Below, one piece after another: positions 11,284 through 53,720 of a stretch of 56,524 bases of DNA. A program made the position numbers and the translations under genes. The DNA comes from a virus (taxonomy: Duplodnaviria; Caudoviricetes), in IMG/VR virus record IMGVR_UViG_3300005613_002794, positions 1 to 56,524 of that record, one strand, 5' to 3'. Every line of letters starts with the position of its first letter. Positions within the stretch are counted from its first letter, which is position 1. A model generated the notes under the pieces. That model searched no databases, had not been told where the DNA came from, and worked only from the letters and a program-made list of their open reading frames with translations.

Positions 11284-12264
11284 ATGGATAATGCAGTATT
11301 AAACAGACTTAAGAACGCAGGACTACTCTCGGAACAGACTCCTGATATGGGATTTGTTTCGACGGGTAGCTTTGCTCTTAACAAGGTTATTTCTGGTGAC
11401 TACACCAAAGGCATCCCCATTGGAATGATTACTCAGTTCCATGGTGAAGCTTCGACTGCGAAGACAGTTTTCGCCACGCACATTCTTAAAGAGGCGCAAA
11501 AAAAAGGTTTTTACACCATGCTTGTTGACTCAGAGAATGCGTACAATTCTGAATTTGCAACTAGCTTGGGTCTTGACCCAAAAAAGCTTATTTATGCAGC
11601 ACCCGAAACGCTTGAAGATTGTTTTCAGGTTATTGAAGACACAATCTTAGCTATTCGAGAAACCGATAAAGAAACACCCATTGTTGTGGCTTATGATTCG
11701 ATTGCTGTTTCACCTTCCAAAGCGGAATATGAAGCAGAAAACTACGAAGGCAACAACATGCAAGGTGCAGTAAGAGCTAAATCAACTGGAGCTTGTTTGA
11801 GAAAGATAAATCCACTCATGCGAAAGCATCGGGTTGCTTTAGTAGTTGTCAACCAAATTAGAAACAAGGTCGGAATCGTTTACGGCAGCAACGAGACTGC
11901 CGCAGCAGGAGGTAAGGCTTTAGATTACTATCTAGGTGTCAATATAAAGACTATCTCGAATAAAACTAGCGATCTTTTGAAAGACGATAACAAACGGGTA
12001 ATGGGTATTCAAGGAAGACTACGCAACACAAAGAATAAGGTTTCCATACCTTTCCGAGAGACCACCTTCAAACTAATGTTTGATGAAGGTCTAGATCCTT
12101 TTGACGGGGTTTTGGATTATCTAATGGAGGATGGTCTTGTTACTCGATCTGGGGCATGGTATACCATAGTCTCCAATAATGAGAAGTTTCAAAGAAAAGA
12201 GCTAGAAAATATTCAGACTGACCCAAAATTTGAAGAAATACGCAACCTTCTTGGGTTGGGGTGA
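11284..12264 (+). CDS. recA: RecA/UvsX recombinase
   Basis: STGSFALN, GEASTAKT Walker A variant, VDSEN, YDSIA, NQIR, GGKALDYY, KNKV..PFR. Confidence 0.9.
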   Translation: MDNAVLNRLKNAGLLSEQTPDMGFVSTGSFALNKVISGDYTKGIPIGMITQFHGEASTAKTVFATHILKEAQKKGFYTMLVDSENAYNSEFATSLGLDPKKLIYAAPETLEDCFQVIEDTILAIRETDKETPIVVAYDSIAVSPSKAEYEAENYEGNNMQGAVRAKSTGACLRKINPLMRKHRVALVVVNQIRNKVGIVYGSNETAAAGGKALDYYLGVNIKTISNKTSDLLKDDNKRVMGIQGRLRNTKNKVSIPFRETTFKLMFDEGLDPFDGVLDYLMEDGLVTRSGAWYTIVSNNEKFQRKELENIQTDPKFEEIRNLLGLG

Positions 12265-25302: not shown

Positions 25303-25307
25303 ACATT

Positions 25308-26381: not shown

Positions 26382-26388
26382 TAGAACT

Positions 26389-27216: not shown

Positions 27217-27226
27217 ACAAGTATAT

Positions 27227-27823
27227 ATGCTGGAACGTAAAGAAAACTGGAACGAAAAAGCTGATTTTTATGACCATATGGAGAGCAAGTATGGTAAGCT
27301 CATGCATAAGATCAGTCATTGGATTTCTGGTGATATCGCTATCACTTCTCACGATGATAATGTTCAAGAGCTTTGGCTGGTAGCGTACACCACTATGGAA
27401 ACATTTAGCCGCTTGAACCTAGAGCAGTACCCAAATGGGTTTGAGGACTACAAGGACACCAAACATTGGGACAAGTACATCAAAACCGCGCTTTGGAATA
27501 ACAAGAATTCTCGCGGAGCAAAGATCACCAAGAAGTTTAACATCACCCGTAACACCGTTGACATTGTAGACAACGAGGAAGTGCTACAGAAAGAGGATCC
27601 TTCTGTGGCTTGCTCTGACACTGATATCTTCCTTGAGGAGATTCAGCCCATGCTCACTGACGATCAGCGAGTGCTTGTGCGTTCGATCCTAGAGGACCCT
27701 ACATATATCAAGCCTTCGGGCAAGGTAAACATCAACGCTCTAGCCAAGAACACAGGCAAGACCTGGAATGATGTGAGCATCCTTCTCAAAGACCTTGGGC
27801 GACGAATCGGTAACGAACTATGA
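27227..27823 (+). CDS. Sigma factor-like / HTH transcription protein
   Basis: Region-2-like KYGKLM...DD.VQE.W...YIKTAL.N and C-terminal HTH-like INALAK.TG.TW..V. Confidence 0.5.
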   Translation: MLERKENWNEKADFYDHMESKYGKLMHKISHWISGDIAITSHDDNVQELWLVAYTTMETFSRLNLEQYPNGFEDYKDTKHWDKYIKTALWNNKNSRGAKITKKFNITRNTVDIVDNEEVLQKEDPSVACSDTDIFLEEIQPMLTDDQRVLVRSILEDPTYIKPSGKVNINALAKNTGKTWNDVSILLKDLGRRIGNEL

Positions 27824-28146
27824 AACAGTACAAAACAGTATATCTCAGTGGTAGTATTTCTGGCCGCATCCAAGGGATCGCAGAGTTCCACTTCAAAGCA
27901 GTCCAGCGTTGGATCGAGGAGCAGACAGGCGCTTATGTCTACAACCCAATGGAGTTTAAGGAGCGTGATTGCTGGGAGGATTACATGCGAGACGGTATCT
28001 CAGCTTTGATGGACTCTGATGCTATCCTGATGCTGGATGGTTGGCAAGAGAGCAGGGGTGCTTCTCTGGAGAGGCATATCGCTCTTGAACTCAAGATTCC
28101 TGTCTTCTACGAACACACTACGCCATGGGTTTCTTCAGAAAACTAA
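27820..28146 (+). CDS. DUF4406 / nucleoside deoxyribosyltransferase-like protein
   Basis: VYLSG.ISG, YNP, W..YM, DAI.ML.GW..S.GA.LE. Confidence 0.8.
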   Translation: MKQYKTVYLSGSISGRIQGIAEFHFKAVQRWIEEQTGAYVYNPMEFKERDCWEDYMRDGISALMDSDAILMLDGWQESRGASLERHIALELKIPVFYEHTTPWVSSEN

Positions 28147-28243
28147 TTTACGCAACCATAATCCCTCAAGATGTGAGGGAAGCAATCAAGATTGACGAGC
28201 TAAAGAAACTCAACGAACAAAAAGAAAAGGACAAGAAGAAGAA

Positions 28244-28471
28244 ATGAGCGACAAAACTTATGACCTCCTGAACACTTTCATTGTGACCCTTGGCATTTTA
28301 GGCTTCTCCTGGATCGCACTAAACGCGGTGGATAAGGCTGCTGCTCGTAAGCACTCCGAGGAGATCTATCGTCTGGAGATCAAGGAGATTGAAGCCAACG
28401 CTCGCATGAAACTGTCTGACATGATCATTGATCTGAACGAAACCATTTTGAGCTTGAAGGAGCAACTGTAA
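28244..28471 (+). CDS. Small membrane-anchored protein
   Basis: N-terminal hydrophobic segment then coiled coil. Confidence 0.55.
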   Translation: MSDKTYDLLNTFIVTLGILGFSWIALNAVDKAAARKHSEEIYRLEIKEIEANARMKLSDMIIDLNETILSLKEQL

Positions 28472-28475
28472 AAGA

Positions 28476-28982
28476 ATGAGCACTTACGATTTCAAAGACG
28501 GTAACGGTCCTGTCCCTGCTCATCAACACACTAACCCTGATGGTTCTGTCGGTGGCTGGGTAGCTGATACTGCCACCGTCGCTGATACTGCCTACATCGG
28601 TCGTGATGCCAAGGTGTCTGGTGATGCCTTGGTGTATGATAATGCCTGGGTGTTTGATGATGCCTTGGTGTATGGTAATGCCAAGGTGTATGGTGATGCC
28701 AAGGTGTATGGTAATGCCTTGGTGTATGATAATGCCTGGGTGTTTGATGATGCCTTGGTGTATGGTAATGCCAAGGTGTATGGTGATGCCAAGGTGTATG
28801 GTAATGCTGAGGTTTTTGGTAATGCCAAGGTGTTTGGTAATGCCTTGGTGTATGATAATGCCTGGGTGTTTGATGATGCCTTGGTGTATGGTAATGCCAA
28901 GGTGTATGGTAATGCCAAGGTGTGCGGTCATGCCTGGGTGTTTGATGATTCTGTATTGAGTACAGGAACCCACAAGGAATAA
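28476..28982 (+). CDS. Hexapeptide-repeat (left-handed beta-helix) protein
   Basis: GPVPAHQHTNPDGSVGGWVADTA then VYGNAK-type repeats. Confidence 0.8.
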   Translation: MSTYDFKDGNGPVPAHQHTNPDGSVGGWVADTATVADTAYIGRDAKVSGDALVYDNAWVFDDALVYGNAKVYGDAKVYGNALVYDNAWVFDDALVYGNAKVYGDAKVYGNAEVFGNAKVFGNALVYDNAWVFDDALVYGNAKVYGNAKVCGHAWVFDDSVLSTGTHKE

Positions 28983-28984
28983 CG

Positions 28985-29581
28985 ATGAACAAGAAAGAAG
29001 TTATCAAGAGCCTGGAATCCATTATCGAGGCTTTGAGTGCTGAGGAGCAAGAAGAAATCACTACCTTTGATTTTGGTAGTGGACCTGTTCCTGCTCATCA
29101 ACACACTAACCCTGATGGGTCAATCGGTGGTTGGGTAGCGGATACAGCTAAAGTAGAACCTAATGTTTATATCGGCTCTAATGCTAGGGTTTTTGGCGAA
29201 GCTTGGGTTTATGGTAATGCTCAGGTTTATGGTGAAGCTTGGGTTTATGGTGAAGCTCGGGTTTGGGGTAAAGCCTGTGTGCTTGGTAATGCTCGGGTTT
29301 ATGGTTATGCTGAGGTTTATGGTAATGCTTGGGCTTATGATAAAGCTCGGGTTTATGATAAAGCTCTAGTTTATGGTAATGCTGAGGTTTTTGGTAATGC
29401 CGAGGTTTATGGTACTGCCCAGGTTTCTGGTACTGCCCAGGTGTCTGGTTTTGCCAGGGTGTATGGTAATGCCTTGGTTTCTGGTAATGCTGAGGTTTGT
29501 GGTAATGCTGAGGTTTATGGTAATGCTCTAGTGTTTGGAGATGCTGGAGAGCATTACCATAGTGACTATAATGAGGACTAA
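28985..29581 (+). CDS. Hexapeptide-repeat protein, paralog 2
   Basis: Same cap motif and VYG.A. repeats. Confidence 0.8.
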   Translation: MNKKEVIKSLESIIEALSAEEQEEITTFDFGSGPVPAHQHTNPDGSIGGWVADTAKVEPNVYIGSNARVFGEAWVYGNAQVYGEAWVYGEARVWGKACVLGNARVYGYAEVYGNAWAYDKARVYDKALVYGNAEVFGNAEVYGTAQVSGTAQVSGFARVYGNALVSGNAEVCGNAEVYGNALVFGDAGEHYHSDYNED

Positions 29582-29584
29582 GCA

Positions 29585-30100
29585 ATGAAATACGAAGAGA
29601 TCAAAGTCCACAAGATCAAGACAGCGGAAATGTATGTGAATGCCTGGTACATCATGCAGGAAGAATTCCCTGATCACAGGGACACAGATCTCTTGAGTGA
29701 ATACGAGTGGATTCTAGTAGCCACAATCGAGCAGAACCAACCGCTGATCAGGGGAAAGAAACAAAAACTAATCGGCGTGATAACAGCGAACAAGTATATC
29801 CCAAAAAAAGCTCTACTGTGTGATATAGTAGTATCCCCAGGATATAGATCCAAAGGAGTAGGAATCAAGATGCTAAAAGAGATGGGCATCATGCTGAGAC
29901 AACAAGGATATACTCACCTTATGGGATTCACACCTAAGAAGAATACAGAAGCTCTCAATACATACAAGAGAGTACACACACACCAAGAAGAAATGATCAT
30001 TACCTCTAGTGAACTAGATGTAAGCATACCACACATCGAACAACTAGAAGCTAAACTAAAATACAGAGATAAGAGAACCAAGAGACAATCACGAAGGTAA
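29585..30100 (+). CDS. GNAT acetyltransferase
   Basis: VSPGYRSKGVG motif A, N..A...Y. Confidence 0.8.
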   Translation: MKYEEIKVHKIKTAEMYVNAWYIMQEEFPDHRDTDLLSEYEWILVATIEQNQPLIRGKKQKLIGVITANKYIPKKALLCDIVVSPGYRSKGVGIKMLKEMGIMLRQQGYTHLMGFTPKKNTEALNTYKRVHTHQEEMIITSSELDVSIPHIEQLEAKLKYRDKRTKRQSRR

Positions 30101-30144
30101 AAGAGGTAGAAAAGAATAGAGAAAAAGGTACAAAAAAGGGTAGT

Positions 30145-30420
30145 ACCAAAAAGTCAAAGTAGAGGCACCCCATATACCCACCCCCCTGAAAAGTAAACCA
30201 AAAAGTCAAAGTATTGAGTTTGAGTATACAAAATACTATACAGGGGACCAAAAAGTCAAATTAGGGGTTCTGAAAATAAGTTGTTTGCTTGACCCAAACT
30301 AAATTCCCACTTTCTCCCACATCCCCCCACTAAACTAAATTCTGTTTTTCTCCCACCCCACCGAACTAAATTTAGAACTAATTCGGTCCACACCGAATAA
30401 AAGTAAACCAAAAAGTCAAA
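30145..30420 (+). repeat. Four ACCAAAAAGTCAAA direct repeats in A-rich non-coding DNA
   Basis: Copies at 30145, 30197, 30247, 30407; fifth at 11253. Confidence 0.85.
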
Positions 30421-30557
30421 CCTGGAAATTGAAATAAATGCATTTTAAAGCACTTTAGTAGGAGCTAGACTCAAATAGTCTAATTTTAAAACCACCTATC
30501 ACAACAAATTAGGATATGGTTTAAAAAACTCCTAAGGAATAAATCCAACTAGATAAG

Positions 30558-30595
30558 AAAAACCCTCTAGGCTATTTAAAGTCTAGAGGGTTTTT
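30558..30595. terminator. Bidirectional intrinsic terminator
   Basis: AAAAACCCTCTAG...CTAGAGGGTTTTT between convergent regions. Confidence 0.8.
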
Positions 30596-30641
30596 CTATT
30601 TAGTCTGAATTAAATTCAGCGAAGCATATCAGGACTTACTT

Positions 30642-30836
30642 TTACTGAAAAGCTTCCCAATCTTCTTCGTTATCGTAATCGTCGAACATATCGTCAAGCG
30701 CTTGACGATAATAGTCTGCGGTACTAATGCTCTGGAAAGTAGCATTCTCTCGCGTTGCAGTGTAGTAAACCGCTTCCCGATAAGAATCCACAACAAGGGT
30801 AGATCCATCCTCAAACCGAACCTCGAACTTTTTCAT
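30642..30836 (-). CDS. Small acidic leaderless protein (array unit)
   Basis: TTGCAA-17-TATAAT-6-ATG, MKKFEVRF... Confidence 0.7.
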   Translation of the reverse strand: MKKFEVRFEDGSTLVVDSYREAVYYTATRENATFQSISTADYYRQALDDMFDDYDNEEDWEAFQ

Positions 30837-30902
30837 GCCCCTATTATACCTCACGTGGCCTAGAATTGCAAGAGAAACCCGTGGGAATTTTTTGGTTCCC
30901 GT

Positions 30903-30984
30903 CGTAAGTGGTTGTAAATAAAGGACTTATGGCGCGCCGCCGCCCGCAGGCCGATCCTAAACCCTTGGGGGATAAGCACTTAGG
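30903..30984 (-). repeat. Composite palindromic element copy 1 (inverted, two 11-7-11 sites)
   Basis: CGTAAGTGGTT-GTAAATA-AAGGACTTATG and CCTAAACCCTT-GGGGGAT-AAGCACTTAGG. Confidence 0.8.
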
Positions 30985-30993
30985 ACCTCGCCC

Positions 30994-31215
30994 CTAGGGC
31001 CTAGAATCCTTGTAAAAAGGCGTCAGGGAGTTAGTGTAAGCTCGGACGGGGGAACATTCTTCGTCGCAATCGTTACACCAGTAAAAATCGTTGGCATAAT
31101 TGTTTTCGATACCTTCCTCCCAACCGTTATCTTCGTTCATTTCCAGGAGAACAGAAAACTCCTGGAGAACGTTATCGCTACCGCATTGGCTACAAGTCCA
31201 GCTATCTTTTTTCAT
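30994..31215 (-). CDS. Zinc-finger protein
   Basis: CSQCGSDNV...WCNDC. Confidence 0.65.
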   Translation of the reverse strand: MKKDSWTCSQCGSDNVLQEFSVLLEMNEDNGWEEGIENNYANDFYWCNDCDEECSPVRAYTNSLTPFYKDSRP

Positions 31216-31877
31216 CAGTGAGAAAGGAATCGAACGGTTTTTTTAGCAGTCCAGCACAATCCACAATCGGCGCAGGACTTTGCTTTAGCAGTCTGTTCGG
31301 GACAATCGAAAGAAGAACCCTCGAAAGATTCTTCCGCAGCATAAAGCCAACCCGTAATGGTATCGGCTTCGAAGTTGCCAGAATGGCGAATAACACAACG
31401 CTCGGAAAAGCGGTTATTCAGGAGCCAGATAGCCTTGCCGATCTTAGTTTGATCCTGGCGAGCAGTATATCCGAAGATCGCAAGTTTAGGATATTCCAGC
31501 AACATCTCTTGCCAGAACTCGACATAATCGGTGGAGTAGAAGTCTCCGAGAACATGCAAACGAATAAGGATTCCGTCCTTATGTTTCGCCATTAGTTTGG
31601 CGATATCGTCGCGCAGCTTATCCTCTAAACCGTTCACGTTGTAACGGTGTGCGAAGGGCATATTGTTACCATAACAGTCTGCCCAATGGTGACAGCTAGT
31701 GGGGCAAGTTTCCCGTTCAGTAAGGGTAAGGGAGAAGATACGCTTTCCCTTGTGCCGACCTTTCGAGACTTTCCAACCGAGCTTCTTGTTGTTCGAGCCA
31801 GGCTTGAGAACGTGGAGAGTGTCCCAGACAGACTTGATGGACTTGAGGTAGCGCGTGGTCAGGAGAGTGTTAGTCAT
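31215..31877 (-). CDS. GP88-like Cys-rich protein (leaderless)
   Basis: N.KLG, TCP.SC....CY, RLHV.GDF, YT, C..CGLC; own promoter. Confidence 0.7.
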   Translation of the reverse strand: MTNTLLTTRYLKSIKSVWDTLHVLKPGSNNKKLGWKVSKGRHKGKRIFSLTLTERETCPTSCHHWADCYGNNMPFAHRYNVNGLEDKLRDDIAKLMAKHKDGILIRLHVLGDFYSTDYVEFWQEMLLEYPKLAIFGYTARQDQTKIGKAIWLLNNRFSERCVIRHSGNFEADTITGWLYAAEESFEGSSFDCPEQTAKAKSCADCGLCWTAKKTVRFLSH

Positions 31878-31936
31878 GCGTGTATTATACCCGACTTTGG
31901 GCCAATGTCAAGCCTGGGAAGAAGTTTTTTTTCGAT

Positions 31937-32002
31937 CCTAAGTCCTTATCCCCCAAGGGTTTACGACCGCTTCGCGGGCGGCCGCGCCTGCCAATATGGC
32001 AG
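31937..32002 (+). repeat. Composite element copy 2 (CTGCCA..TGGCAG tail)
   Basis: CCTAAGTCCTTATCCCCCAAGGGTTTACGACCGCTTCGCGGGCGGC. Confidence 0.9.
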
Positions 32003-32015
32003 TCAAGGAAAAAAA

Positions 32016-32098
32016 TGGTGGAGGCGCAGGGAATCGAACCCTGGTCTTAACTAGTTCCCGTGTAGGGTCTTAGCTAGTCGAACAACCATATCGCCCCC
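32016..32098 (-). ncRNA. tmRNA tRNA-like-domain-only RNA (83 nt)
   Basis: GGGGGCG-ATATGGTTGTTCGAC...GAC-CAGGG-TTCGATT-CCCTG-CGCCTCC-ACCA; G3:U70 pair; no D stem; short closed helix 2. Confidence 0.8.
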
Positions 32099-32172
32099 GA
32101 AGGGTGGCGGAGGGTAGCCCTTCTGCTGTGGCCCACTTACCTCCAGCATGAGACAGACCCTCCGCCGATCAT

Positions 32173-32406
32173 TCACCGACCGCGACGGCCAAGGCCACCC
32201 TGGGTGGCGAGGTGAGCAGCAGAGGCACCGAGGCGCCGATCCCCGTCCATCGGGAGGAGACGCCGCAGAGATTTGTAAGCCTCAAGGCACTCCATCGCGT
32301 TGATGTTTGAGTTGGGATCATCGTAGAGGTCAGCGAAAAGCTCTCCAACTTGGACGGAGAGACCTTGAATCTTAGCCAACAGGGCGTCCTTGTTGAAATC
32401 TTTCAT
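32173..32406 (-). CDS. Leaderless hypothetical protein (array unit)
   Basis: TTGACA...GGTATAAT-6-ATG. Confidence 0.65.
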   Translation of the reverse strand: MKDFNKDALLAKIQGLSVQVGELFADLYDDPNSNINAMECLEAYKSLRRLLPMDGDRRLGASAAHLATQGGLGRRGR

Positions 32407-32459
32407 GGGTGTATTATACCGCAGGGAAGGGAGTTTGTCAAGGGGAAAAGGGAAGAAAC

Positions 32460-32603
32460 CTAGTAGGCGTCGTCGCACCAATCGTCGCAATCGGGATCAT
32501 CTTGCCAATCCTCACAGCCTTCCTCCTCGATGGCATAGAAGCCTTCCTCGATCATGCGGTAGAAGCTGTCGGCTTGCTCGTAGTAATCGTTTTCGTTTTC
32601 CAT
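32460..32603 (-). CDS. Very acidic 47-aa leaderless protein
   Basis: MENENDYYEQADSF...DDWCDDAY; own promoter. Confidence 0.65.
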   Translation of the reverse strand: MENENDYYEQADSFYRMIEEGFYAIEEEGCEDWQDDPDCDDWCDDAY

Positions 32604-32644
32604 GCGTGTATTATACCAGAAGAAGGCTCGTTTGTCAAGGGGAA

Positions 32645-32860
32645 TCAGAGAGAAAACGGAAGTTCGCAACCCTCGCGCTGCCAACGACTTGCAATGGCGC
32701 TCATGTGGTAGCTGGCAAGGGAATCGGGCATATCGAGCCCGTGGACGCGGTAGTCCGCACAGGCATCACGGTAGGGCATCCACAACAGCCCAAACCCATC
32801 GGCTTCAATGGCATCGAGGAGGCGAGAGAGCTTGCTGGGCAGGTGAGTCGTTTTCTTCAT
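32645..32860 (-). CDS. Leaderless hypothetical protein
   Basis: TGTGGTATAAT-6-ATG. Confidence 0.6.
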   Translation of the reverse strand: MKKTTHLPSKLSRLLDAIEADGFGLLWMPYRDACADYRVHGLDMPDSLASYHMSAIASRWQREGCELPFSL

Positions 32861-32919
32861 GTGTGTATTATACCACACTCTTGGGGGATTGCAGGCGTGT
32901 GGTGCGAAAAACTTTCTGC

Positions 32920-33002
32920 CCTAAGTCCTTGTCCCCCAAGGGTTTAGGACCGCTTCGCGGGCGGCGCGGATGCCCTAACCCTAGTATTGACAAGGGTTTA
33001 GG
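32920..33002 (+). repeat. Composite element copy 3 (two 11-7-11 sites, 54 bp apart)
   Basis: Core plus CCTAACCCTAG-TATTGAC-AAGGGTTTAGG. Confidence 0.9.
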
Positions 33003-33020
33003 TTCACCCACTAAAAAATA

Positions 33021-33280
33021 GCACTCAACCGCTAAAAACTAGCGGTTGAGTGCATCCGAGACGCCCCTTGCAAAGAGCTTCTCGGCCTGCCTCGGCCCTA
33101 GCCGCCTCAGCCAGTTTAATAAATCACGCACCGCTCTAGACTATCGCGCGCGACCCGATAGTGTTGCGGTGTGGAGGAGCTACCTCCGCGTGTCCCCCAA
33201 AGGGTGGGGCTTTCGCCTCGCTACCCTTCGGGACGCTCTGGGCCTAGTCACCTATTTAGCCTCGCCCAGTCGAGGATGGG
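33021..33280 (-). ncRNA. Candidate structured non-coding RNA
   Basis: Dense series of GC-rich hairpins and a 14-bp terminal stem. Confidence 0.4.
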
Positions 33281-33282
33281 AT

Positions 33283-33516
33283 TCACGCCCCCATGTAGCG
33301 GTGGTTCAATCCGCTCTTGGTCACGAACTGGCGGGAGTTGGCATAGTGCCGATTCCACGCGTGCTTGCAAGCGTTCAGCGTTCCCGTGTAGGTGTTTCGC
33401 TGTTCTTGTAGGTCGAAGATGGTGTAGACCGCATTTGCGGCGTTGCCCTTACCGACTCGAATCATGACCGCATTCTGGTTCGAACGCACGATGTTAGTGA
33501 TGATGAAGTTGATCAT
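33283..33516 (-). CDS. Hypothetical protein (SD-led, own promoter)
   Basis: AGGAGA SD; TTGACA..TATAAT at about 33562-33590. Confidence 0.65.
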   Translation of the reverse strand: MINFIITNIVRSNQNAVMIRVGKGNAANAVYTIFDLQEQRNTYTGTLNACKHAWNRHYANSRQFVTKSGLNHRYMGA

Positions 33517-33586
33517 TGTTTGATTTCTCCTATTGGAAATAAGGTTGGTGAACGAGCCCCCATTATACCATGGGGACCGTGTGCTG

Positions 33587-33961
33587 TCAAGCGTTGGCTT
33601 CGAAGTTCTTGACGATGTTGGCGATCTTGGCCTGGATGCGAGCGTCGATATCGCTCAGACGCTGCTCACCGCTGGAGAGGGTTTCCTCTGCCTCACTGAC
33701 TTCCATGTTGATCTTGTCGATCCAACGCTCATGCTTGGCGATGCGAGCCTGTCCCGACTGGGGACCGTTGCCAAGCACCTTCTTGGCCTCGCGGATCTGC
33801 TTCTGGATGATGGCCTTGTTCTCCAGCATGGTGGCAACGTCGGGGTTGCTGCTGGCGTCCTTCTTGGCTTGCTTGATGCGAAGACGCTCAAGCTTGGCCT
33901 CGGTTTCCGCGATGATCTCGGCAGGGGTGCGCTGGCCGCGCTTAGTGATGTTGTCTTTCAT
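33587..33961 (-). CDS. Coiled-coil leaderless protein
   Basis: TTGACT..GGTATAAT-6-ATG. Confidence 0.7.
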   Translation of the reverse strand: MKDNITKRGQRTPAEIIAETEAKLERLRIKQAKKDASSNPDVATMLENKAIIQKQIREAKKVLGNGPQSGQARIAKHERWIDKINMEVSEAEETLSSGEQRLSDIDARIQAKIANIVKNFEANA

Positions 33962-34015
33962 GGTCGTATTATACCTCAGGTTAGGGGTTCAGTCAACAAG
34001 AATCTGGAGAAAGTT

Positions 34016-34177
34016 TCAGATGTTGAGACCTTTGGAGCGAGCTTCCTCACGCCATGCGAGGTAGTCTTGGACCTCTTCGACAGTGTAACCATCTTCCCAG
34101 AACTCTTGGATCACCTCCGTATCCAGGTAGCCCAGGGTGGTGAAGAAGGCCTCTTGGTTCATATCGGTGTAGCTCAT
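34016..34177 (-). CDS. 53-aa acidic leaderless protein (not in ORF track)
   Basis: MSYTDMNQEAFFTTLGYLDTEVIQEFWEDGYTVEEVQDYLAWREEARSKGLNI; TATAAT-6-ATG. Confidence 0.65.
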   Translation of the reverse strand: MSYTDMNQEAFFTTLGYLDTEVIQEFWEDGYTVEEVQDYLAWREEARSKGLNI

Positions 34178-34236
34178 GCGCGTATTATATCACGGATCGA
34201 GGCCATTGCAAGCCTGGGAAGAAGTTTTCTTTCGAT

Positions 34237-34319
34237 CCTAAGTCTTTATCCCCCAAGGGTTTAGGACCGCTTCGCGGGCGGCGCGGATGCCCTAACCCTA
34301 GTATTGACAAGGGTTTAGG
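34237..34319 (+). repeat. Composite element copy 4 (two sites)
   Basis: Near-identical to copy 3. Confidence 0.9.
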
Positions 34320-34466
34320 ACCGTTTTCGGCAGTTTGCGTGCACACGAAATTTTGCGTGCGCACGGAATCTACCCGACTGCCGTTGAGCATGGGCCTACA
34401 TGTAGAGCCAAGCTATGCACGCACCGAAGAACAACACGTTGCACAGCACGCGGTAAGCACGACTCT

Positions 34467-34730
34467 TCAATAGATCAGTCCGCCGCTGCTGTTCAACCTC
34501 GCGACGTATTCTTCACGCAAGGCGTTGTGCTTGCGCGTGAGCACGGGGATCTCCTCAGCAGGGACGAAGGCCCCCCAGAGCGTGTTGACACCGTTGTCCA
34601 GGATCTCAAGATGCACGAGTTCGTTGGATTGAGGACGAACGGCGAACCAGATGTCTTGGATGAGGATGTTGGTAGGGATGTCGTGGATGGATGACATGAT
34701 CAGCATTTGGCTAGGTTGTTGTGTTTCCAT
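34467..34730 (-). CDS. Leaderless hypothetical protein (METQ...)
   Basis: TTGACA..TATAAT-GAGCAAC-ATG. Confidence 0.65.
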   Translation of the reverse strand: METQQPSQMLIMSSIHDIPTNILIQDIWFAVRPQSNELVHLEILDNGVNTLWGAFVPAEEIPVLTRKHNALREEYVARLNSSGGLIY

Positions 34731-34769
34731 GTTGCTCATTATACCACAAGGGACAGGGGTTGTCAAGGA

Positions 34770-34976
34770 CTAATCCGTGCAAACTTCAACGTACCAGCCG
34801 TCCAGCGCGGGCCAGGAATCGCGGATGCCAAGCCAAGCGCCGATTTCCTTGCGGACGAACTCGTACATCTCCTTTTTGGTGGAACCCTCTGGAACTACGA
34901 CAAAGTAGGTATCGTAGTAACGGCCAGATTGGATCTTTTCGAACGAAGAGACGTTCAGCTCTTTGCTTTCTTTCAT
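34770..34976 (-). CDS. Leaderless protein, paralog of 36565..36747
   Basis: FEKIQSGRYYDTY...GWYVEVCTD. Confidence 0.7.
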   Translation of the reverse strand: MKESKELNVSSFEKIQSGRYYDTYFVVVPEGSTKKEMYEFVRKEIGAWLGIRDSWPALDGWYVEVCTD

Positions 34977-35035
34977 GGGTACATTATACCACATCCTGGG
35001 CAAATGTCAAGGGGTCAGGTGGATCTTTTTGTCGT

Positions 35036-35100
35036 CCTAAGTCCTTGTCCCCCAAGGGGTTAGGACCGCTTCGCGGGCGGCTGGCCTGCCATTATGGCAG
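35036..35100 (+). repeat. Composite element copy 5
   Basis: Core plus CTGCCATTATGGCAG. Confidence 0.9.
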
Positions 35101-35247
35101 ATTGTGTGCTTGGTCCTCGATAGCTTCAATGAGGGCACGGTAGTCCATAGGACCGAGGGGAGTAGTTCCTGGGGCTGTGCTCTCAGCGACCCACTGGCCG
35201 ACTTCGATGCAACGGATTTCCCAGAAATTCATATTGCTATCGTACAT
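35092..35247 (-). CDS. 51-aa leaderless protein (not in ORF track)
   Basis: MYDSNMNFWEIRCIEVGQW...QAHNLP; TATAAC-7-ATG; stop lies inside the element tail. Confidence 0.55.
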   Translation of the reverse strand: MYDSNMNFWEIRCIEVGQWVAESTAPGTTPLGPMDYRALIEAIEDQAHNLP

Positions 35248-35319
35248 GCTTTGTGTTATACCACGGGGGTAGCAGTATGCTGATCGGTGTCAAGAAGAGC
35301 GTTCAAGCCTTTTTATTTG

Positions 35320-35919
35320 TTAGTTGCCAGAAACCCAAGCTTTACCAAAAACTAGAGCATTATCACAAACCCGAGCTTTACCAAAAACTAGAGCATTACC
35401 ATGAACCGAAGCATTATCAAAAACTAGAGCTTCACCGTAAACCCTAACTTCATCATAGGCCCAAGCTTTACCAAAAACCTGAGCTTTACCATAAACCCGA
35501 GCTTTACCATAAACCCGAGCATTACCATAAACCCGAGCTTCATCATAAACCCGAGCTTCATCATAAACCCTAGCTTCATCATAAACCCTAGCTTCACCAA
35601 AAACCTGAGCTTTACCGTAAACCCGAGCATTACCAAAAACCCTAGCTTTACCATAAATCCAAGTTTCACCAAAAACCTGAGCTTTACCGTAAACCGAAGC
35701 ATTACCCCAAACCCGAGCATTACCAAAAACCTGAGCTTTACCGTAAACCCGAGCATAACCAAGAACTAAAGCTTCCCCGAAAACCCTAGCATTGGGACCA
35801 ATATAAGCAGTAGGTTCTACGATAGCTGTATCAGCTACCCAACCACCAATTGATCCATCAGGATTAATATGACGCTTCGCAGCCAGAAGGGGAACGTTCA
35901 GCTCTTTGCTTTCTTTCAT
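35320..35919 (-). CDS. Hexapeptide-repeat protein, paralog 3 (chimeric N-terminus)
   Basis: MKESKELNV shared with 34976 gene, then HINPDGSIGGWVADTA and repeats. Confidence 0.8.
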   Translation of the reverse strand: MKESKELNVPLLAAKRHINPDGSIGGWVADTAIVEPTAYIGPNARVFGEALVLGYARVYGKAQVFGNARVWGNASVYGKAQVFGETWIYGKARVFGNARVYGKAQVFGEARVYDEARVYDEARVYDEARVYGNARVYGKARVYGKAQVFGKAWAYDEVRVYGEALVFDNASVHGNALVFGKARVCDNALVFGKAWVSGN

Positions 35920-35978
35920 GGGTGTATTATACCACACTTCGGGGCGATTACAAGTCTGGAGGTGGATCTTTTTGCACT

Positions 35979-36044
35979 CCTAACCTGTTATGCCCCAAGG
36001 GGTTACGACCGCTTCGCGGGCGGCCCCGCCTGCCATAATGGCAG
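35979..36044 (+). repeat. Composite element copy 6 (diverged left arm)
   Basis: CCTAACCTGTT-ATGCCCC-AAGGGGTTACG, core, CTGCCATAATGGCAG. Confidence 0.85.
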
Positions 36045-36127
36045 TCAAGGAAAAAAGATGATAGATATTCGCTATTCGCGAATAGCGAATGGGGCAAGCC
36101 GTCAGGCTCCACAGGTGCGGCGGCTAA

Positions 36128-36310
36128 CTAAATCAGGTTCTTAAGGTTTTGCTTTTGGATGCGGCGAAACTTACGGCGTTCTTTCGCGTTGGACTTTCTC
36201 GGATGAGTCCCCCACCCGTTGCAGCACACACAACTTTTTCCGCCATACCCGTGATAGCTACGACGAATCAGTTTTTCTTCTTTTGCGTTGTTTGCAATCT
36301 CGATGTTCAT
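36128..36310 (-). CDS. Small basic Cys-containing protein
   Basis: CVCCNG, Arg/Lys-rich. Confidence 0.55.
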   Translation of the reverse strand: MNIEIANNAKEEKLIRRSYHGYGGKSCVCCNGWGTHPRKSNAKERRKFRRIQKQNLKNLI

Positions 36311-36331
36311 ACTAGTATTTAGGGAACTTTA

Positions 36332-36526
36332 TTATCGAAGAAGATCAGGGGAAACGGGTTGATTTTGAATCAAAGCAAAAGCCACTTCACGAATTTGCAT
36401 TCTCAATTCCTCCGTAGGGGAAAAAGAATCCTCGTCGTCAACCACAACAAAGCGCTTTTCTCGGTCGATGATATCCAAAAGAGTGTTTGCGATGTCGATT
36501 CGACGGCGATCTTCGGAAGTTTCCAT
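36332..36526 (-). CDS. Leaderless hypothetical protein
   Basis: TTGACA..GGTATAAT-6-ATG. Confidence 0.65.
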   Translation of the reverse strand: METSEDRRRIDIANTLLDIIDREKRFVVVDDEDSFSPTEELRMQIREVAFALIQNQPVSPDLLR

Positions 36527-36564
36527 GTGTGCATTATACCTCAGTAAGTGGGGGTTGTCAAGGA

Positions 36565-36747
36565 CTAATCCGTGCAAACTTCAACGTACCAACCCTTGTC
36601 CTTGTAGGGCCAGGATTGGCGGATGCCGAGACCAGCGCCAATTTCCCTGCGGACGTACTCGTGGATCTCCTCTCGGGTGGAACCCTCAGGTGCCACGACA
36701 AGGTAGGTATCGTAGTAACGGCCAGATTGGATCTTTTCGAACTTCAT
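36565..36747 (-). CDS. Leaderless protein, paralog of 34770..34976
   Basis: Same promoter sequence and similar coding sequence. Confidence 0.7.
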   Translation of the reverse strand: MKFEKIQSGRYYDTYLVVAPEGSTREEIHEYVRREIGAGLGIRQSWPYKDKGWYVEVCTD

Positions 36748-36806
36748 GGGTACATTATACCACATCCTGGGCAAATGTCAAGGGGTCAGGTGGATTTTTT
36801 TATCGT

Positions 36807-36872
36807 CCTAAGTCCTTGTCCCCCAAGGGGTTAGGACCGCTTCGCGGCCGCCCCCGCCTGCCATAATGGCAG
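36807..36872 (+). repeat. Composite element copy 7
   Basis: Core plus CTGCCATAATGGCAG. Confidence 0.9.
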
Positions 36873-36885
36873 TCTGTGATGTGTT

Positions 36886-37089
36886 TCATTCGCAGGGAAT
36901 AACGTCGTCCCAGATGCCTTGGTCGATCAGGTCCTGAGCGGACACGATCTTATTCCAATAGTACTCGTCCGCCCACCGCTCCAAATCAGCCATGTACTCA
37001 GTGTCGCAGGAGGAGCAGAGCCCCATGTGCGAGCGAAGGAAGTGGATCGGGGCAAGCGCCCCACAGCTATCACAGGCTTGTGTTTCCAT
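36886..37089 (-). CDS. Leaderless zinc-finger protein
   Basis: METQACDSC...LCSSC; TATAAT-GAGCAAC-ATG. Confidence 0.65.
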   Translation of the reverse strand: METQACDSCGALAPIHFLRSHMGLCSSCDTEYMADLERWADEYYWNKIVSAQDLIDQGIWDDVIPCE

Positions 37090-37238
37090 GTTGCTCATTA
37101 TACCACAGGGAAGGGGGCTTGTCAATAGGTTTTTTGGGTTTTCCTCAGAGGTTAGAGGTCATCTGCCTCTAAAGTGCCAAAAGTGGCCTATAACCGATGT
37201 GGCGTGTGGCCTTGACGCGGGGCCGCTCGGCCCCTGAA

Positions 37239-37460
37239 TTAGCGGTTGAGGAGGTCGAGCATTTGCTTCAAGCTCCACCGCTTGGTGCTGTAGTAGGAGG
37301 GCCACAAGGGGTCGCCTTGAGGGTAGTGGAATCGGTAGTGCGAGGAACCACTCGCCAGGTTGACGAGTTGGAGGACCTTACCCTCAGGCCCGAACCACTC
37401 CAGGATGTTCGGGTTGTCGGTGCGGGGAGTACCTTGGGGGAGAGTCTTGGTTGCTTTCAT
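37239..37460 (-). CDS. Leaderless hypothetical protein
   Basis: TTGCAT..TATAAT-GAGCAAC-ATG. Confidence 0.65.
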   Translation of the reverse strand: MKATKTLPQGTPRTDNPNILEWFGPEGKVLQLVNLASGSSHYRFHYPQGDPLWPSYYSTKRWSLKQMLDLLNR

Positions 37461-37523
37461 GTTGCTCATTATACCACACCCTCAGCGGAATGCAAGAACT
37501 ATTTCGGAAAATATCGCGTGGAC

Positions 37524-37637
37524 GGGACTCCTAACAAACCCCAAACCCACCTACATACAGGGACTCCTAATATTTTTCAAGTCCCAATTTTATAAAAAAT
37601 AAACTCAGGGACTCCTAGAACTTTTGTGGGACTCCTA
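37524..37637 (+). repeat. Four GGGACTCCTA direct repeats
   Basis: Copies at 37524, 37560, 37608, 37628. Confidence 0.85.
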
Positions 37638-37657
37638 TATAAATTCAGAGGTACATT

Positions 37658-51963: not shown

Positions 51964-52942
51964 TTTCATTTATCATTTTGTATTCAAAATTATAGAGAGA
52001 GCTTTCATTCATAACCCAGGAGTGAAGGCTCTCTCCTTTTACATGAGCTTCGTTCCAATCTTTGCAGCCCTTAGGTGGGGAACAGACGTAGAAATCATCC
52101 ATTAGTCTTTCACGGCGAAGCACATCAAACCTCTGGCATCCCCTAACACCAGCGGTATCACTATCAAAGCCCAGGATAACCCTGCCATCAAATGTTGACA
52201 GGATCTCAGCCTGGCGAGGGCTAATGTAGTTCTTCATGGTGGCTGTAGCGTTCACACCTTGGAGCTGTAGGGACTTAGCATCCAAAGGCCCTTCGCATAC
52301 AACTACATAATCCTCGTCTTCGTTGTAAGGGTACAGGATCTCTGAGGGGTTGGGAGCAGACTCGATAGAAGGGTTTAGATACTTTGGTCTCTGGTCGCCC
52401 AAGGCTCGACCTTGGAAGTAGTATACAACACCATCTTTCTTGAATGGAATTATGATTCTGTTTTGGAACTTGCCATCCATGCACAGGTAGTATTCAGCAG
52501 CAGGGGGATCTTCTACAGAGAAAAGTTTTCTCTCAAACAATAGGCTCCATGCCCTCAAGACATCAGGATCGTCAGAGTGCCCAGACTCAATATTCAAAGG
52601 AATAAGCTTGCTAGTGTCCAACTCAAGCTGACGCTCCTCCTTGATTTGCTCTGGAATGTCCTCACCAATGAACTCAAAGTTCCTGATCATCAGATCCCTA
52701 TAAGCGCGGAAGTAGGGAATATCTTCAGCTTCGGAGTACAGTCTGGTGAAGTTACCTGAGCGCCCAGTCTTGAAACACTGCCACAAACCACTATCTACAT
52801 TGACGCTCATGTGCCTCTTCCAATCATTCCTGACGAAGAGTGATTCCATGATAAATTCCCGACCGTTGGAAGATAACCTTCCTTTATCAGAAAAATTTTG
52901 AGTAATGTAGTCTCTAATAAACTGAGGTGCTATAATGTACAT
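51950..52942 (-). CDS. DNA primase (TOPRIM)
   Basis: RIIIPF, FQGR, PKYLN, VCEGPLDA, FDSDTAG, KDWNE. Confidence 0.9.
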   Translation of the reverse strand: MYIIAPQFIRDYITQNFSDKGRLSSNGREFIMESLFVRNDWKRHMSVNVDSGLWQCFKTGRSGNFTRLYSEAEDIPYFRAYRDLMIRNFEFIGEDIPEQIKEERQLELDTSKLIPLNIESGHSDDPDVLRAWSLLFERKLFSVEDPPAAEYYLCMDGKFQNRIIIPFKKDGVVYYFQGRALGDQRPKYLNPSIESAPNPSEILYPYNEDEDYVVVCEGPLDAKSLQLQGVNATATMKNYISPRQAEILSTFDGRVILGFDSDTAGVRGCQRFDVLRRERLMDDFYVCSPPKGCKDWNEAHVKGESLHSWVMNESSLYNFEYKMINEINLL

Positions 52943-53720
52943 AAAAACTATTTCCGAATCTAAGTATCAAACTTTCAAGCAGTGTAAACTTAAATACCGT
53001 TACCGTTATGTTGATCGTCTGCCTGAGCCAGAGGAGTCTAACACAGACGCTCTCCACTTTGGATCATATATCCACAAGATCCTTGAGGACGGTGTGAACG
53101 CCAAAACTCAAGAGGAGCTTGTCCAGATCGCTGAGGAAGTGAAGGGCACATACAAGGTATCAGAGAAGTACGACGGCAAGGATTTAAAGTGTATCCAGAA
53201 TTTTCTGAAGTTCAATGAACAACTAGAGAATACCGTCGCCTGCGAGCTTGTATTCGAAGTTCCAGTAAAAGACGACATTACCTTGAATGGAGTAATAGAC
53301 CGTGTAATCAAGGGCAATGATGGTGGTTATCTGGTAATCGACTACAAGACATCCAAGCGTGAGAAAAGTAAGGTCGAACTTTACCAGGATTCCCAACTCA
53401 AAGGGTATGTGTACGCTATCAGCAAACTATACGATGTGCCCTACTCTAAGATCATCGCAGCACACTACTACCCACTAACTAACAATTTTGTACACGTTCA
53501 ATACTCTACCCCTCAGATTACAGCCCATGCTCGCAAGATCGTTGATGAAGTCTGGAAGATCCGCAAGAGCAAGAAAGAGGACATGAAGCCTAACCGCAAT
53601 GAATTTTGCTCATGGTGCGCCTACAAGACCTGCTGCCCCGAGTTTAATTCTCCTCAGGCATGTTCTTCCAAGATCGAGCAGTTGAAGGCTAAGAAGGCTT
53701 TGGATAAGTCCCGTAAATAA
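52935..53720 (+). CDS. PD-(D/E)XK RecB/Cas4-like exonuclease
   Basis: S.SK...F.QC, G..IH..LE, G.IDR, IDYKTS, QL..Y, C.WC....CCP. Confidence 0.85.
   Translation: MYIKTISESKYQTFKQCKLKYRYRYVDRLPEPEESNTDALHFGSYIHKILEDGVNAKTQEELVQIAEEVKGTYKVSEKYDGKDLKCIQNFLKFNEQLENTVACELVFEVPVKDDITLNGVIDRVIKGNDGGYLVIDYKTSKREKSKVELYQDSQLKGYVYAISKLYDVPYSKIIAAHYYPLTNNFVHVQYSTPQITAHARKIVDEVWKIRKSKKEDMKPNRNEFCSWCAYKTCCPEFNSPQACSSKIEQLKAKKALDKSRK

Follow-up and report, generated by a model that had tools for sequence, protein, structure and literature searches.

What does a composite palindromic element do when it recurs upstream of promoter after promoter in a phage gene array? This question is raised by a 56,524-nt stretch of DNA (the window, meaning the whole stretch that was analyzed; CheckV completeness 51%) from a tailed phage of aquatic origin that has not been cultured. 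Its T4-type terminase is ~31–33% identical to those of the best-matching isolate phages, T4-type myoviruses among them, and the phage is only distantly T4-like. The original prediction offered two readings of the element, an integron- or dif-like recombination system that shuffles self-expressing genes, and a series of phased nucleoprotein sites. Our analysis points, with moderate confidence, to the upstream half of a cassette border of the promoter-early stem-loop (PeSL) type in an early-gene (hyperplastic) array, which would combine regulation with a patch of homology.

Composite elements in the early-gene array

Every one of the seven composite copies predicted upstream of promoters was present. 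The array and its elements are laid out as follows:

30642..37460, minus strand: early-type array of ~18 small genes, mostly orphans, in ~7 element-headed units
36807..36872, minus strand: element E7, with palindrome CTGCCATTATGGCAG (36858–36872), GC box (36836–36857) and proximal dyad (36807–36835); downstream are an A-tract, −35 box (36781–36776), −10 box (36759–36754) and ATG (36747)
~36090–36051, minus strand: terminator-like hairpin and T-run just upstream of E6
35979..36044, minus strand: element E6, with palindrome (36030–36044), GC box and proximal dyad (35979–36007); its promoter TTGTAA/TATAAT precedes a β-solenoid gene (ATG 35919)
35036..35100, minus strand: element E5, with palindrome (35086–35100, sharing bases with the stop codon of the 51-aa ORF upstream), GC box and proximal dyad (35036–35064); −10 box start 34988, ATG 34976
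34237..34319, minus strand: element E4, with distal dyad (34291–34319), GC box and proximal dyad (34237–34265); −10 box start 34189, ATG 34177
33053–33021, minus strand: intrinsic terminator upstream of E3
32920..33002, minus strand: element E3, with distal dyad (32974–33002), GC box and proximal dyad (32920–32948); promoter CTGCAA/TATAAT, ATG 32860
31937..32002, minus strand: element E2, directly after the end of a tmRNA-like gene, with palindrome (31988–32002), GC box and proximal dyad (31937–31965); −10 box start 31889, ATG 31877
30903..30984, minus strand: element E1, with distal dyad (30956–30984), deviant GC box and proximal dyad (30903–30931); −35 box TTGCAA, ATG 30836

Searching the window for the dyad TAANNCCTT-N7-AAGNNNTTA with at most one mismatch gave 14 strand matches at eight loci, compared with 0.15 expected; none of 100 shuffles reached 14, and no match in the window lay outside 30.9–36.9 kb. 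The GC box CGCGAAGCGGTC occurred six times in the window, always inside the array. Both kinds of distal partner were found as described, namely exact matches to CTGCCA-N3-TGGCAG at 31988, 35086, 36030 and 36858, and a second dyad 53–54 bp away, upstream of the proximal dyad, in E1, E3 and E4. The copy at 30903 had been called inverted, which is incorrect: this proximal dyad is oriented like the others, with 30956–30984 as its distal partner. The distance to the −35 box, given previously as ~25–35 bp, is 27 nt from ACTTA in the six main copies (25 nt from the end of the 29-mer) and 33 nt in the copy at 30903.

Each unit opens with one set of modules. The first two are optional, a terminator and then either a distal dyad or CTGCCA-N3-TGGCAG. 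A GC-rich box comes next, and after it the proximal dyad, (C)TAAGT-N15-ACTTA(G); a UP-like tract rich in A and T then leads to the −35 box, to a −10 box extended by TG, and to an ATG at +1. The array proteins had no informative Pfam or PHROG match, and no binding protein for the dyad was identified.

Promoters and helical phasing of the dyad

The window contained 16 promoter-like sites against 5.6 ± 2.4 expected, and all 13 sites matching at least 10 of 12 positions were on the minus strand. Most array genes carried their own near-consensus σ70 promoter, in agreement with the description of them as self-expressing. In 12 of the 13 listed array promoters the −10 hexamer was 6–7 nt from the ATG, and the array mRNAs therefore look leaderless, a feature that the original prediction had not mentioned.

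We compared promoters with and without an element, the latter set including unverified promoter-like sites. A perfect TTGACA was present in 14 of 52 promoters with an element and 104 of 164 without (Mann–Whitney P = 1e-6, a value inflated because the copies are mutually related), and a TG-extended −10 box in 41/52 and 92/164, respectively. The mean −35 score was lower with an element in 11 of the 17 sources having both kinds of promoter and not lower in 6. Many element-bearing promoters already match the consensus perfectly, an observation that counts against a need for an activator.

The element proved to be conserved in related phages, with 80 promoter-proximal copies (71 distinct 29-mers) in 21 sources, that is, the window and 20 of 24 related viral contigs. 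For 71 of the 80 copies, a promoter lay at most 120 nt downstream, with an ATG 5–8 nt past its −10 box. The distance from the dyad center to the −10 box fell mainly into two classes, 61–63 bp (31 copies) and 71–73 bp (22 copies); the remainder were at 51 bp (1), 64–70 bp (6), 74 bp (2), 79–81 bp (4), 90 bp (2) and 118–122 bp (3). Among 69 distinct spacer sequences, the Rayleigh R was 0.72 at a period of 9.5–10 bp, within a broad spectrum (R of at least 0.6 between 9 and 11.5 bp). The spacing between distal and proximal dyads was 51–54 bp in 21 of 23 pairs. The dyad fits a predicted phased protein-binding site, and the alternative of phased nucleoprotein sites is consistent with both the 10-bp ladder to the promoter and the inter-dyad spacing. 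However, copies inspected by eye carried class-specific motifs: those of the 27-nt class had GAAAGTTTTT, those of the 37-nt class long A-runs, and the ladder may therefore partly reflect two ancestral modules and not a selected helical phase.

Conservation of the dyad as a probable DNA site

Only the outer half-sites, (C)TAAGT..ACTTA(G), recurred in all copies, and they were kept across phages whose portal proteins are just 72–75% identical. Identity of the central 15 bp was 79% within a source and 50% between sources; gene conversion alone could explain such uniformity within a genome. The element is confined to the array in the window and likewise in a 130-kb relative rated 100% complete, where five copies lie on one strand, all within 4.7 kb.

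These patterns bear on whether the element might be a selfish miniature mobile element (MITE or REP-like) that spread through the array without a role for the phage. Such an element would be a short, repeated, palindrome-rich intergenic sequence with copies similar within one genome, as is the case here. The constant orientation, the few promoter spacings, the confinement to a single array and the retention of the outer half-sites across divergent phages all argue against it; moreover, no target-site duplications were seen, and the 60 window ORFs covered included no transposase or HUH-type gene. We regard this explanation as highly improbable.

We further analyzed whether the arms are maintained as a hairpin. 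The fraction of arm cells able to pair was 69.4%, compared with 71.5% in shuffled controls, and 500 of 500 shuffles reached the observed value. The pair formed by columns 8 and 22 was Watson–Crick in 24% of the 71 sequences, and the commonest state of the central pair was a C–C mismatch (35/71). Because the arms show no covariation, the dyad is not a conserved hairpin, and the site would act as DNA.

An RNA stem-loop, corresponding to the ‘SL’ of PeSL, is accordingly an unlikely explanation. It would have read-through transcripts fold at the GC box and dyad, so that the upstream mRNA is terminated, attenuated or stabilized, with the link to the promoter due to descent only. PeSL stem-loops are described as terminators in the available part of one report (PMC2839356), the elements are placed at the ends of transcription units, and single copies fold with z-scores of −3.2 to −3.7. 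Dyad variants with a perfect stem and T-run were also found in two relatives (position 9462 of L086 and 5696 of L088). These two variants resemble plain intrinsic terminators. Besides the pairing data, however, the proximal dyad has no trailing U-run, and separate canonical terminators stand upstream of several copies. The GC box folds no better than its shuffles (mean z −0.58), and equally well from both strands. Finally, the elements keep to constrained distances from the promoter, but in the window they lie anywhere from 0 to ~280 nt from the upstream stop codon.

As a DNA site, the dyad might be bound by a host bending protein of the IHF/HU type and not by a phage protein; bending at about −74 would then place upstream DNA, or else the α C-terminal domain, on RNA polymerase. 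The promoter-proximal arm is indeed the better conserved (C18 86%, A19 94%, A20 83%; the conservation of T25-T26-A27 was imposed by the search filter). Its sequence, CAA-N4-TTA, corresponds to part of the IHF core given in the original prediction, and an A/T-rich tract adjoins the arm; phasing is present as well. The WAT part of that core is nevertheless unmatched, with T at column 17 in 2 of 71 sequences, and the left half-site TAAGT is also conserved, a feature left unexplained by one asymmetric IHF site. We consider a site of this type quite unlikely.

Junctions of rearranged cassettes

Close relatives differed in the order and content of their cassettes, and the junctions lay at the element, as the prediction of shuffled cassettes had anticipated. 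In L107, the cassette between E6 and E5 is absent. In L114, the 51-aa gene is relocated, with one junction inside an element. In L105, the distal dyad of E1 contains a drop in identity from 99.6% to 86%, and two element-bounded blocks are in exchanged order. L116 carries a 1.2-kb tandem duplication whose right ends are at the ATG after element and promoter, and in L110 and L113 a cassette is duplicated with its own element on each copy. Among close relatives, cassettes bounded by elements have been deleted, transposed or duplicated.

Three of the four junctions placed at base level were inside elements, which make up ~8% of the array. The L107 and L114 crossovers were upstream of the spacer, where GC box and left arm together are identical over 22 nt. 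The L105 junction fell in a dyad lacking homology on its left flank, either in the left arm or in the spacer. The GC box and left arm form the longest identity between copies, and the in-element junctions map there, not to the 7-bp spacer where breakpoints had been sought. At the fourth junction no element was involved; the sequences used were a plain promoter module and a terminator. At the sequence level, the role of the element as a homology patch is evident from this comparison of relatives.

Two window genes could supply the enzymes for such exchange:

11284..12264, plus strand: RecA-family recombinase (PF00154, E = 1.8e-40)
52935..53720, plus strand: PD-(D/E)XK nuclease (PF12705, E = 2.1e-35)

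The RecA-family enzyme is the probable agent of homologous exchange between elements, and the nuclease is a possible partner in recombination. The statement that the window holds no recombinase was accordingly right for the tyrosine (PF00589) and serine (PF00239) types, for which neither the window nor any of five related records (CheckV 55–100% complete, one rated 100%) gave a match at E ≤ 1, and wrong for the RecA family.

These results weigh against a site-specific recombination site (integron attC, dif or pdif), where cassettes would be captured or excised by a dedicated recombinase that cuts within the 7-bp spacer separating the 11-bp arms. Two inverted arms with a short spacer do lie at cassette borders, the spacer and inner arms are uniform in each genome, as would be required of partner sites, and the L105 junction with its non-homologous left flank could be accommodated. 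However, there is the negative search for both recombinase families, two crossovers lie upstream of the spacer, one junction is at a plain promoter module, and the L116 duplication ends at an ATG. A recombination site, moreover, needs neither fixed orientation nor helical phasing to a promoter. We find this explanation very unlikely and reject an integron- or dif-like system in favor of a regulatory module and homology patch of the T4-type PeSL kind.

Proposed function of the element

For its regulatory role, we suggest that the dyad is bound by a dimeric protein of phage or host, which would sit on one helix face at about −74, −84 or −93 and act on RNA polymerase at the neighboring early promoter. 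The bound protein might activate promoters with weaker −35 boxes, or shut off early transcription like p4 in phi29, and a distal dyad five helical turns away could allow cooperative binding. The 60–130 bp of near-identical element and promoter would at the same time form a portable homology patch, and homologous recombination between patches could delete, duplicate, move or replace the bounded cassettes.

Comparison with known systems

Like integron attC and XerCD dif/pdif sites, the dyad is an imperfect inverted repeat with a short spacer at cassette borders. In contrast to those systems, the window and the related records searched yielded no tyrosine recombinase, the L107 and L114 crossovers lie outside the spacer, the cassettes have their own promoters, and the element is phase-locked to the promoter.

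The p4 sites of phi29 consist of inverted half-sites ~15 bp apart, two helical turns center to center, and several phased sites lie upstream of early and late promoters. From around −71 and −82, p4 works via RNA polymerase, activating weak promoters and repressing strong ones. The dyad resembles these sites in half-site spacing and in its multiple phased positions upstream of promoters. The sequences are unrelated, however, no p4-like protein was identified here, and p4 sites are not known to be spread over a cassette array or to serve as recombination borders. Strong bacterial promoters are also activated from upstream, as at rrnB P1 (UP element and Fis) and class I CRP sites. In the array, as in these systems, an A/T-rich tract (about −40 to −60) precedes a protein site, predicted here, that is centered near −70, with alternative positions one helical turn apart, although the dyad motif is unlike the Fis or CRP consensus.

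The closest likeness is to the PeSL cassettes of T4-type phages, for which the available parts of the reports give the same cassette logic, with homologous recombination as the mechanism (Arbiol et al. 2010, PMC2839356; Comeau et al. 2014, PMC4122927), and the analogy drawn originally holds to that extent. As described there, PeSLs are, like the element here, composite intergenic repeats of ~100 bp with a palindromic or GC-rich part and then an A/T-rich tract, a strong σ70-type promoter and a start codon. They are concentrated among small orphan early genes and bound the indels, replacements and displacements between close relatives; homologous recombination was proposed, with crossovers in or near the stem-loop. 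Compared with PeSLs as so described, the present array belongs to a phage whose T4-likeness is distant (terminase identity about 31–33%), and it has no Shine–Dalgarno sequence, the ATG following the −10 box by 6–7 nt. It also has separate canonical terminators, and in place of a conserved hairpin a dyad with recurring outer half-sites, which is helically phased to the promoter and often preceded, five turns upstream, by another copy.

The composite element in the early-gene array

All seven predicted copies of the composite element were found among the small minus-strand genes of the array (30.6–37.5 kb):

E1, 30903
E2, 31937
E3, 32920
E4, 34237
E5, 35036
E6, 35979
E7, 36807

The component parts were present as well: the GC box in six copies, the palindrome CTGCCA-N3-TGGCAG in four and a second dyad in three. 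The copy at 30903, which had been described as inverted, is instead an ordinary proximal dyad, and its distal partner lies at 30956–30984. As determined from a six-copy alignment, promoter scans and an 80-copy consensus, the repeat places a palindromic sequence just ahead of an A/T-rich tract, which leads into a sigma-70-like early promoter and ends with the start codon. The dyad pattern occurred at eight loci (14 strand matches), compared with 0.15 expected in the window; all copies fell within 30.9–36.9 kb, and no match was found anywhere else in the window. The element is real and conserved.

Array genes and their promoters

The minus strand between 30.6 and 37.5 kb contains about 18 small ORFs, and 15 of the 17 array ORFs that were scanned (g34976 lay outside the scan) showed no significant match to Pfam or PHROG. 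A conserved 124-aa array protein matched a single viral cluster of the protein atlas (score 0.79), which offered no lead. The gene at 35320–35919 (minus strand) encodes a beta-solenoid protein with the YdcK repeat (PF18836) and is built of 18-nt periodic repeats; repeat DNA at 28425–29581 cross-matches this gene.

The promoter scan identified 16 sigma-70-like sites, compared with 5.6 ± 2.4 expected, and the best 13 belonged without exception to the minus strand. A separate listing of array promoters contained 13, of which 12 had the ATG 6–7 nt past the –10 hexamer, and array transcripts should therefore begin at or beside the start codon, as predicted from this layout. By visual inspection, the genes with ATG at 37460, 32860 and 35247 displayed the same layout with weaker hexamers.

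Outside the array, five genes (11284, 39839 on the minus strand, 50075 on the minus strand, 14262 and 29585) carried TATAAT(A) upstream of the ATG, at distances between a few bases and about 12 nt, and lacked a Shine-Dalgarno sequence; these genes may have a second class of promoter, producing very short leaders or none. A Shine-Dalgarno-like motif was observed in only 17 of the 37 larger window genes that were checked.

The phage and its relatives

The window is an entire viral contig of 56.5 kb with a CheckV completeness of 51%. It encodes a T4-type large terminase, a portal protein, a helicase, a T4_baseplate-family protein (PF12322), a RecA-family recombinase, a primase, a PD-(D/E)XK nuclease and a ClpX-like ATPase; a gp23-type capsid protein was not recognised among the window proteins scanned. 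In tblastn searches of isolate phages, the best terminase matches showed about 31–33% identity, with a maximum of 33%, and array DNA matched isolate phages (blastn) solely in the beta-solenoid repeats. By these two measures, no isolate phage is close. Uncultured relatives are numerous in aquatic metagenomes: portal relatives were confirmed in 179 viral contigs, and the 80 that were kept were 72–99% identical.

The first part of the window (1–6000) is low in GC (32–35%); most other parts have 40–46%, and the array reaches as much as 55%. This block contains matches to GtrB-like glycosyltransferases and an asparagine-synthase-like gene, and an epimerase gene follows at 7371–8357. We also observed that a 3.6-kb contig (L117) binned in an alphaproteobacterial metagenome-assembled genome harbors three copies of the composite in which a distal dyad and a GC box precede the proximal dyad (203–1760), and that the copy at position 654 is directly followed by a promoter and an ATG. 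This could be a weak hint at the host or a binning artefact, and we did not count it as evidence.

The element family across relatives

An exact search of viral contigs for the GC box plus left arm of the window returned no matches; relatives were then reached via proteins. Using the conserved 124-aa array protein, we collected arrays from 24 loci. Promoter-proximal copies with a GC-rich block ahead numbered 80 (71 distinct 29-mers) and were distributed over 21 sources, i.e. the window and 20 of the 24 loci. The family consensus, beyond the TAA..TTA that the pattern search itself demanded, was CC-TAAGTCCTT-nnnTnA-CAAGCACTTA-CG, and the GC-rich block (consensus GGGCCGGGGC..GCCC) abuts the dyad directly. 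Conservation was higher in the promoter-proximal arm than in the distal arm. We considered whether the window copies are inverted relative to those of the relatives and rejected this, as the better conserved promoter-proximal arm (ACTTA) gives the same orientation everywhere. The central 15 bp were 79% identical within a source compared with 50% between sources; therefore, each phage keeps its own uniform version.

In a relative rated 100% complete, five copies were located on one strand, all within 4.7 kb, and no copies occurred elsewhere in that genome. Literature searches, judged on titles and the beginnings of abstracts for the motif strings and on the listing for leaderless transcription, early promoters and T4-like phages, with supplements outside their scope, yielded top-listed papers unrelated to the element in the former case and no paper on it in the latter.

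Promoter coupling and helical phase

For 71 of the 80 copies, a promoter was found at most 120 nt downstream, with the ATG 5–8 nt past its –10 box. We measured the spacing from the dyad centre to the first base of the –10 box.

Spacing between dyad centre and –10 box
Spacing (bp), number of copies
51, 1
61–63, 31
64–70, 6
71–73, 22
74, 2
79–81, 4
90, 2
118–122, 3

The commonest dyad positions were accordingly about –74 and about –84 (ATG = +1). The Rayleigh R value peaked at 0.72 for a period of 9.5–10 bp over 69 different spacer sequences, in a set of copies that are mutually related. Visual inspection of the copies indicated that the two main spacing classes each have their own A/T motifs. 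The distance between distal and proximal dyads was 51–54 bp, about five helical turns, in 21 of 23 pairs.

The promoters themselves also differed, with the same relatedness among copies applying to these counts: a perfect TTGACA was rarer with the element (14/52) than without it (104/164), and a TG-extended –10 box was commoner (41/52 compared with 92/164). Among 17 sources containing both kinds of promoter, 11 had a lower mean –35 score for the element-bearing promoters, and the other 6 did not. The element is linked to promoters and specific to the array. We propose that a dimeric protein binds the dyad and modulates early transcription.

The dyad as a probable DNA site

We further analyzed the possibility that the 11-7-11 structure is an RNA hairpin or terminator. 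Single copies fold well, and a terminator or attenuator role such as that of the PeSL stem-loop would be a less probable reading of the element. Among the 71 distinct copies, 69.4% of cells paired, compared with 71.5% after shuffling of the 3΄ letters, and all 500 shuffles reached the observed value. Pair changes on both sides were rarer in real copies than in shuffles, and a C-C mismatch occupied the middle pair in 35 of 71 copies. The dyad is not a conserved hairpin. Because pairing was no better than in shuffled sequences, covariation was absent and the middle mismatch was common, the two arms keep their half-site sequences independently rather than their complementarity, as expected for the DNA site of a dimer.

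An intrinsic (Rho-independent) terminator would call for a conserved GC-rich paired stem followed directly by a U-run, and the dyad showed no such combination; no U-run follows the proximal dyad. The terminator scan listed none at any dyad and found one at 33053–33021, upstream of E3. The GC box was also considered as a hairpin and dropped, since its mean z value was –0.58 relative to shuffles and strand bias was absent. In two relatives (L086 at about 9462 and L088 at about 5696), a dyad variant, CCCCAAGTGC..GGCACTTGGGG, forms a perfect stem followed by a T-run; it looks like a canonical terminator that reuses the half-site, and it is located 62 bp upstream of the proximal dyad.

Cassette exchange at the element

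An exact-pattern scan of metagenome contigs recovered 12 loci. Five (L106, L108, L111, L112 and L115) were collinear with the window at 95–99.9% identity, and the remaining loci were rearranged. In L107, window position 35894 is joined straight to 35100, so that the two-gene cassette between E6 and E5 is absent; the diagnostic bases switch within the GC box, upstream of the spacer. The array copy of the beta-solenoid gene belongs to this cassette. In L114, a 51-aa gene is placed between E4 and the gene at 34730; one junction maps to the GC box or the left arm, and the other uses a terminator plus a plain promoter module that occurs elsewhere in the array. The L107 and L114 crossovers at the element fall upstream of the diagnostic base of the left arm. 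L105 is 99.6% identical to window 22168–30984; within the distal dyad of E1 the identity falls to 86%, which locates the crossover either within the left arm or at the edge of the spacer. L105 also lacks a 73-aa gene, contains an additional dyad unit and shows two element-bounded blocks whose order is exchanged. A 1.2-kb tandem duplication in L116 (copies 97% identical) has right ends at the ATG that follows element and promoter, and a cassette is duplicated in L110 and L113 with an element heading each copy.

Cassette shuffling at the element, as originally proposed, was borne out by these comparisons. Gene order is not fixed, and breakpoints are not unrelated to the element, because three of the four junctions mapped at base level lie within elements, which make up about 8% of the array. 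As far as the compared contigs show, the element is a preferred border of cassette exchange.

The prediction went further in placing the exchanges inside the 7-bp spacer, as an integron- or dif-like system would. The breakpoints did not follow this pattern, lying in the region of GC box and left arm in L107 and L114 and, in L105, within the left arm or at the border of the spacer. Searches for Phage_integrase (PF00589) and Resolvase (PF00239) gave no match at E ≤ 1 in the window and five related records (61–130 kb), one of which was rated 100% complete; the controls matched in 14/14 and 13/14 known genomes. Site-specific recombination of an integron or dif type is unlikely at the element, although an enzyme of the host could still supply it. 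The RecA-family system of the window would probably drive the exchanges, and the PD-(D/E)XK protein may also take part.

RNA genes and other repeats near the array

Further features were observed in and beside the array:

32016–32098, minus strand, tmRNA-like gene of 83 nt, tRNA-like domain only (55.6 bits; gathering score 47)
33223–33275, minus strand, Pistol ribozyme match at 38.5 bits (gathering score 34.5), final model helix unmatched
37530–37640, direct repeat TAGGAGTCCC in four copies with a single inverted GGGACT, located where array and plus-strand genes diverge
30145–30438, ACCAAAAAGTCAAA in four copies 50–160 bp apart, just outside the array
30296–30367, tandem 36-nt repeats, just outside the array

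In Rfam, these two RNAs were the only array matches, and the element was unmatched both at the gathering threshold and at E ≤ 1. The tmRNA-like gene, directly upstream of E2, has 13 nt in place of the 306-nt middle part of the model; its acceptor stem contains a G3:U pair, and its CCA end is encoded. Its simple T-arm/CCA pattern was also matched in L105, L109, L110 and L116, and the same end is readable in L046, L085 and L102. The available account of marine myophages reports tmRNA genes behind early promoters (PMC9004378). The Pistol match sits in the gap between a 77-aa gene and the terminator at 33053–33021. The TAGGAGTCCC motif occurs, as GGGACTCCTA, at the equivalent place in L046, and near the first promoter in several relatives.

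A possible operator function

We hypothesized that the dyads are operators of an unrecognised regulator that couples the timing of early genes with gene capture; taken as a whole, this hypothesis is tentative and we consider it rather more doubtful than probable. The regulator would be a small early phage protein or one delivered with the virion. At the promoter heading each early cassette, it could form a phased nucleoprotein complex comprising the proximal site, the distal site five turns away and RNA polymerase, and could thereby set the timing of the entire leaderless early programme in a widespread aquatic phage clade. Because the operators would double as homology patches for cassette exchange, a captured gene would automatically come under control, and no site-specific recombinase would be needed.

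If the dyad is an operator, it provides a handle for finding the early-transcription regulator in phages without a cultured host, and explains how newly acquired orphan genes could be controlled correctly at once. The natural deletion, transposition and duplication variants constitute a ready series in which recombination at short regulatory repeats could be tested.

Comparison with known systems

The geometry of the element, with half-sites two turns apart, sites near –74 and –84 and a second site five turns away, resembles that of phi29 p4 and class I activators.

The promoter/early stem-loop (PeSL) cassettes of T4-type phages are described in the accounts consulted as composites of about 100 bp that combine a stem-loop and an A/T-rich tract with a sigma-70-like early promoter, a Shine-Dalgarno sequence and the start codon, and that cluster among orphan genes (PMC2839356, PMC4122927). 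The same accounts attribute insertions, deletions and replacements to homologous recombination between the repeats, place the crossovers within or next to the stem-loop and report the formation of mini-circles (PMC2839356, PMC4122927).

The analogy with PeSL drawn in the original prediction holds against these descriptions in composition, position and comparative behaviour. The window element likewise joins a palindromic repeat, an A/T tract and an early promoter that ends at the start codon; its copies are concentrated within a plastic stretch of small orphan genes; and gain, loss or replacement is bounded by the element in L105, L107, L114, L116, L110 and L113. In contrast to PeSL as described, the window element has a leaderless layout without a Shine-Dalgarno sequence, its palindrome is a dyad whose half-sites recur while its arms do not covary, the distances from this dyad to the promoter and to a second dyad are in helical phase, and separate canonical terminators are present (e.g. 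33053–33021). On these sequence features, the element belongs to the PeSL kind, apparently as a differing variant not previously described.

To our knowledge, the documented cases of PeSL-type shuffling had all come from cultured T4-type phages that infect enterobacteria and vibrios. Its logic is now seen in an abundant uncultured aquatic clade (179 portal-encoding contigs), whose cassette borders add two features, a dyad phase-locked to the promoter and a start codon next to the –10 box.
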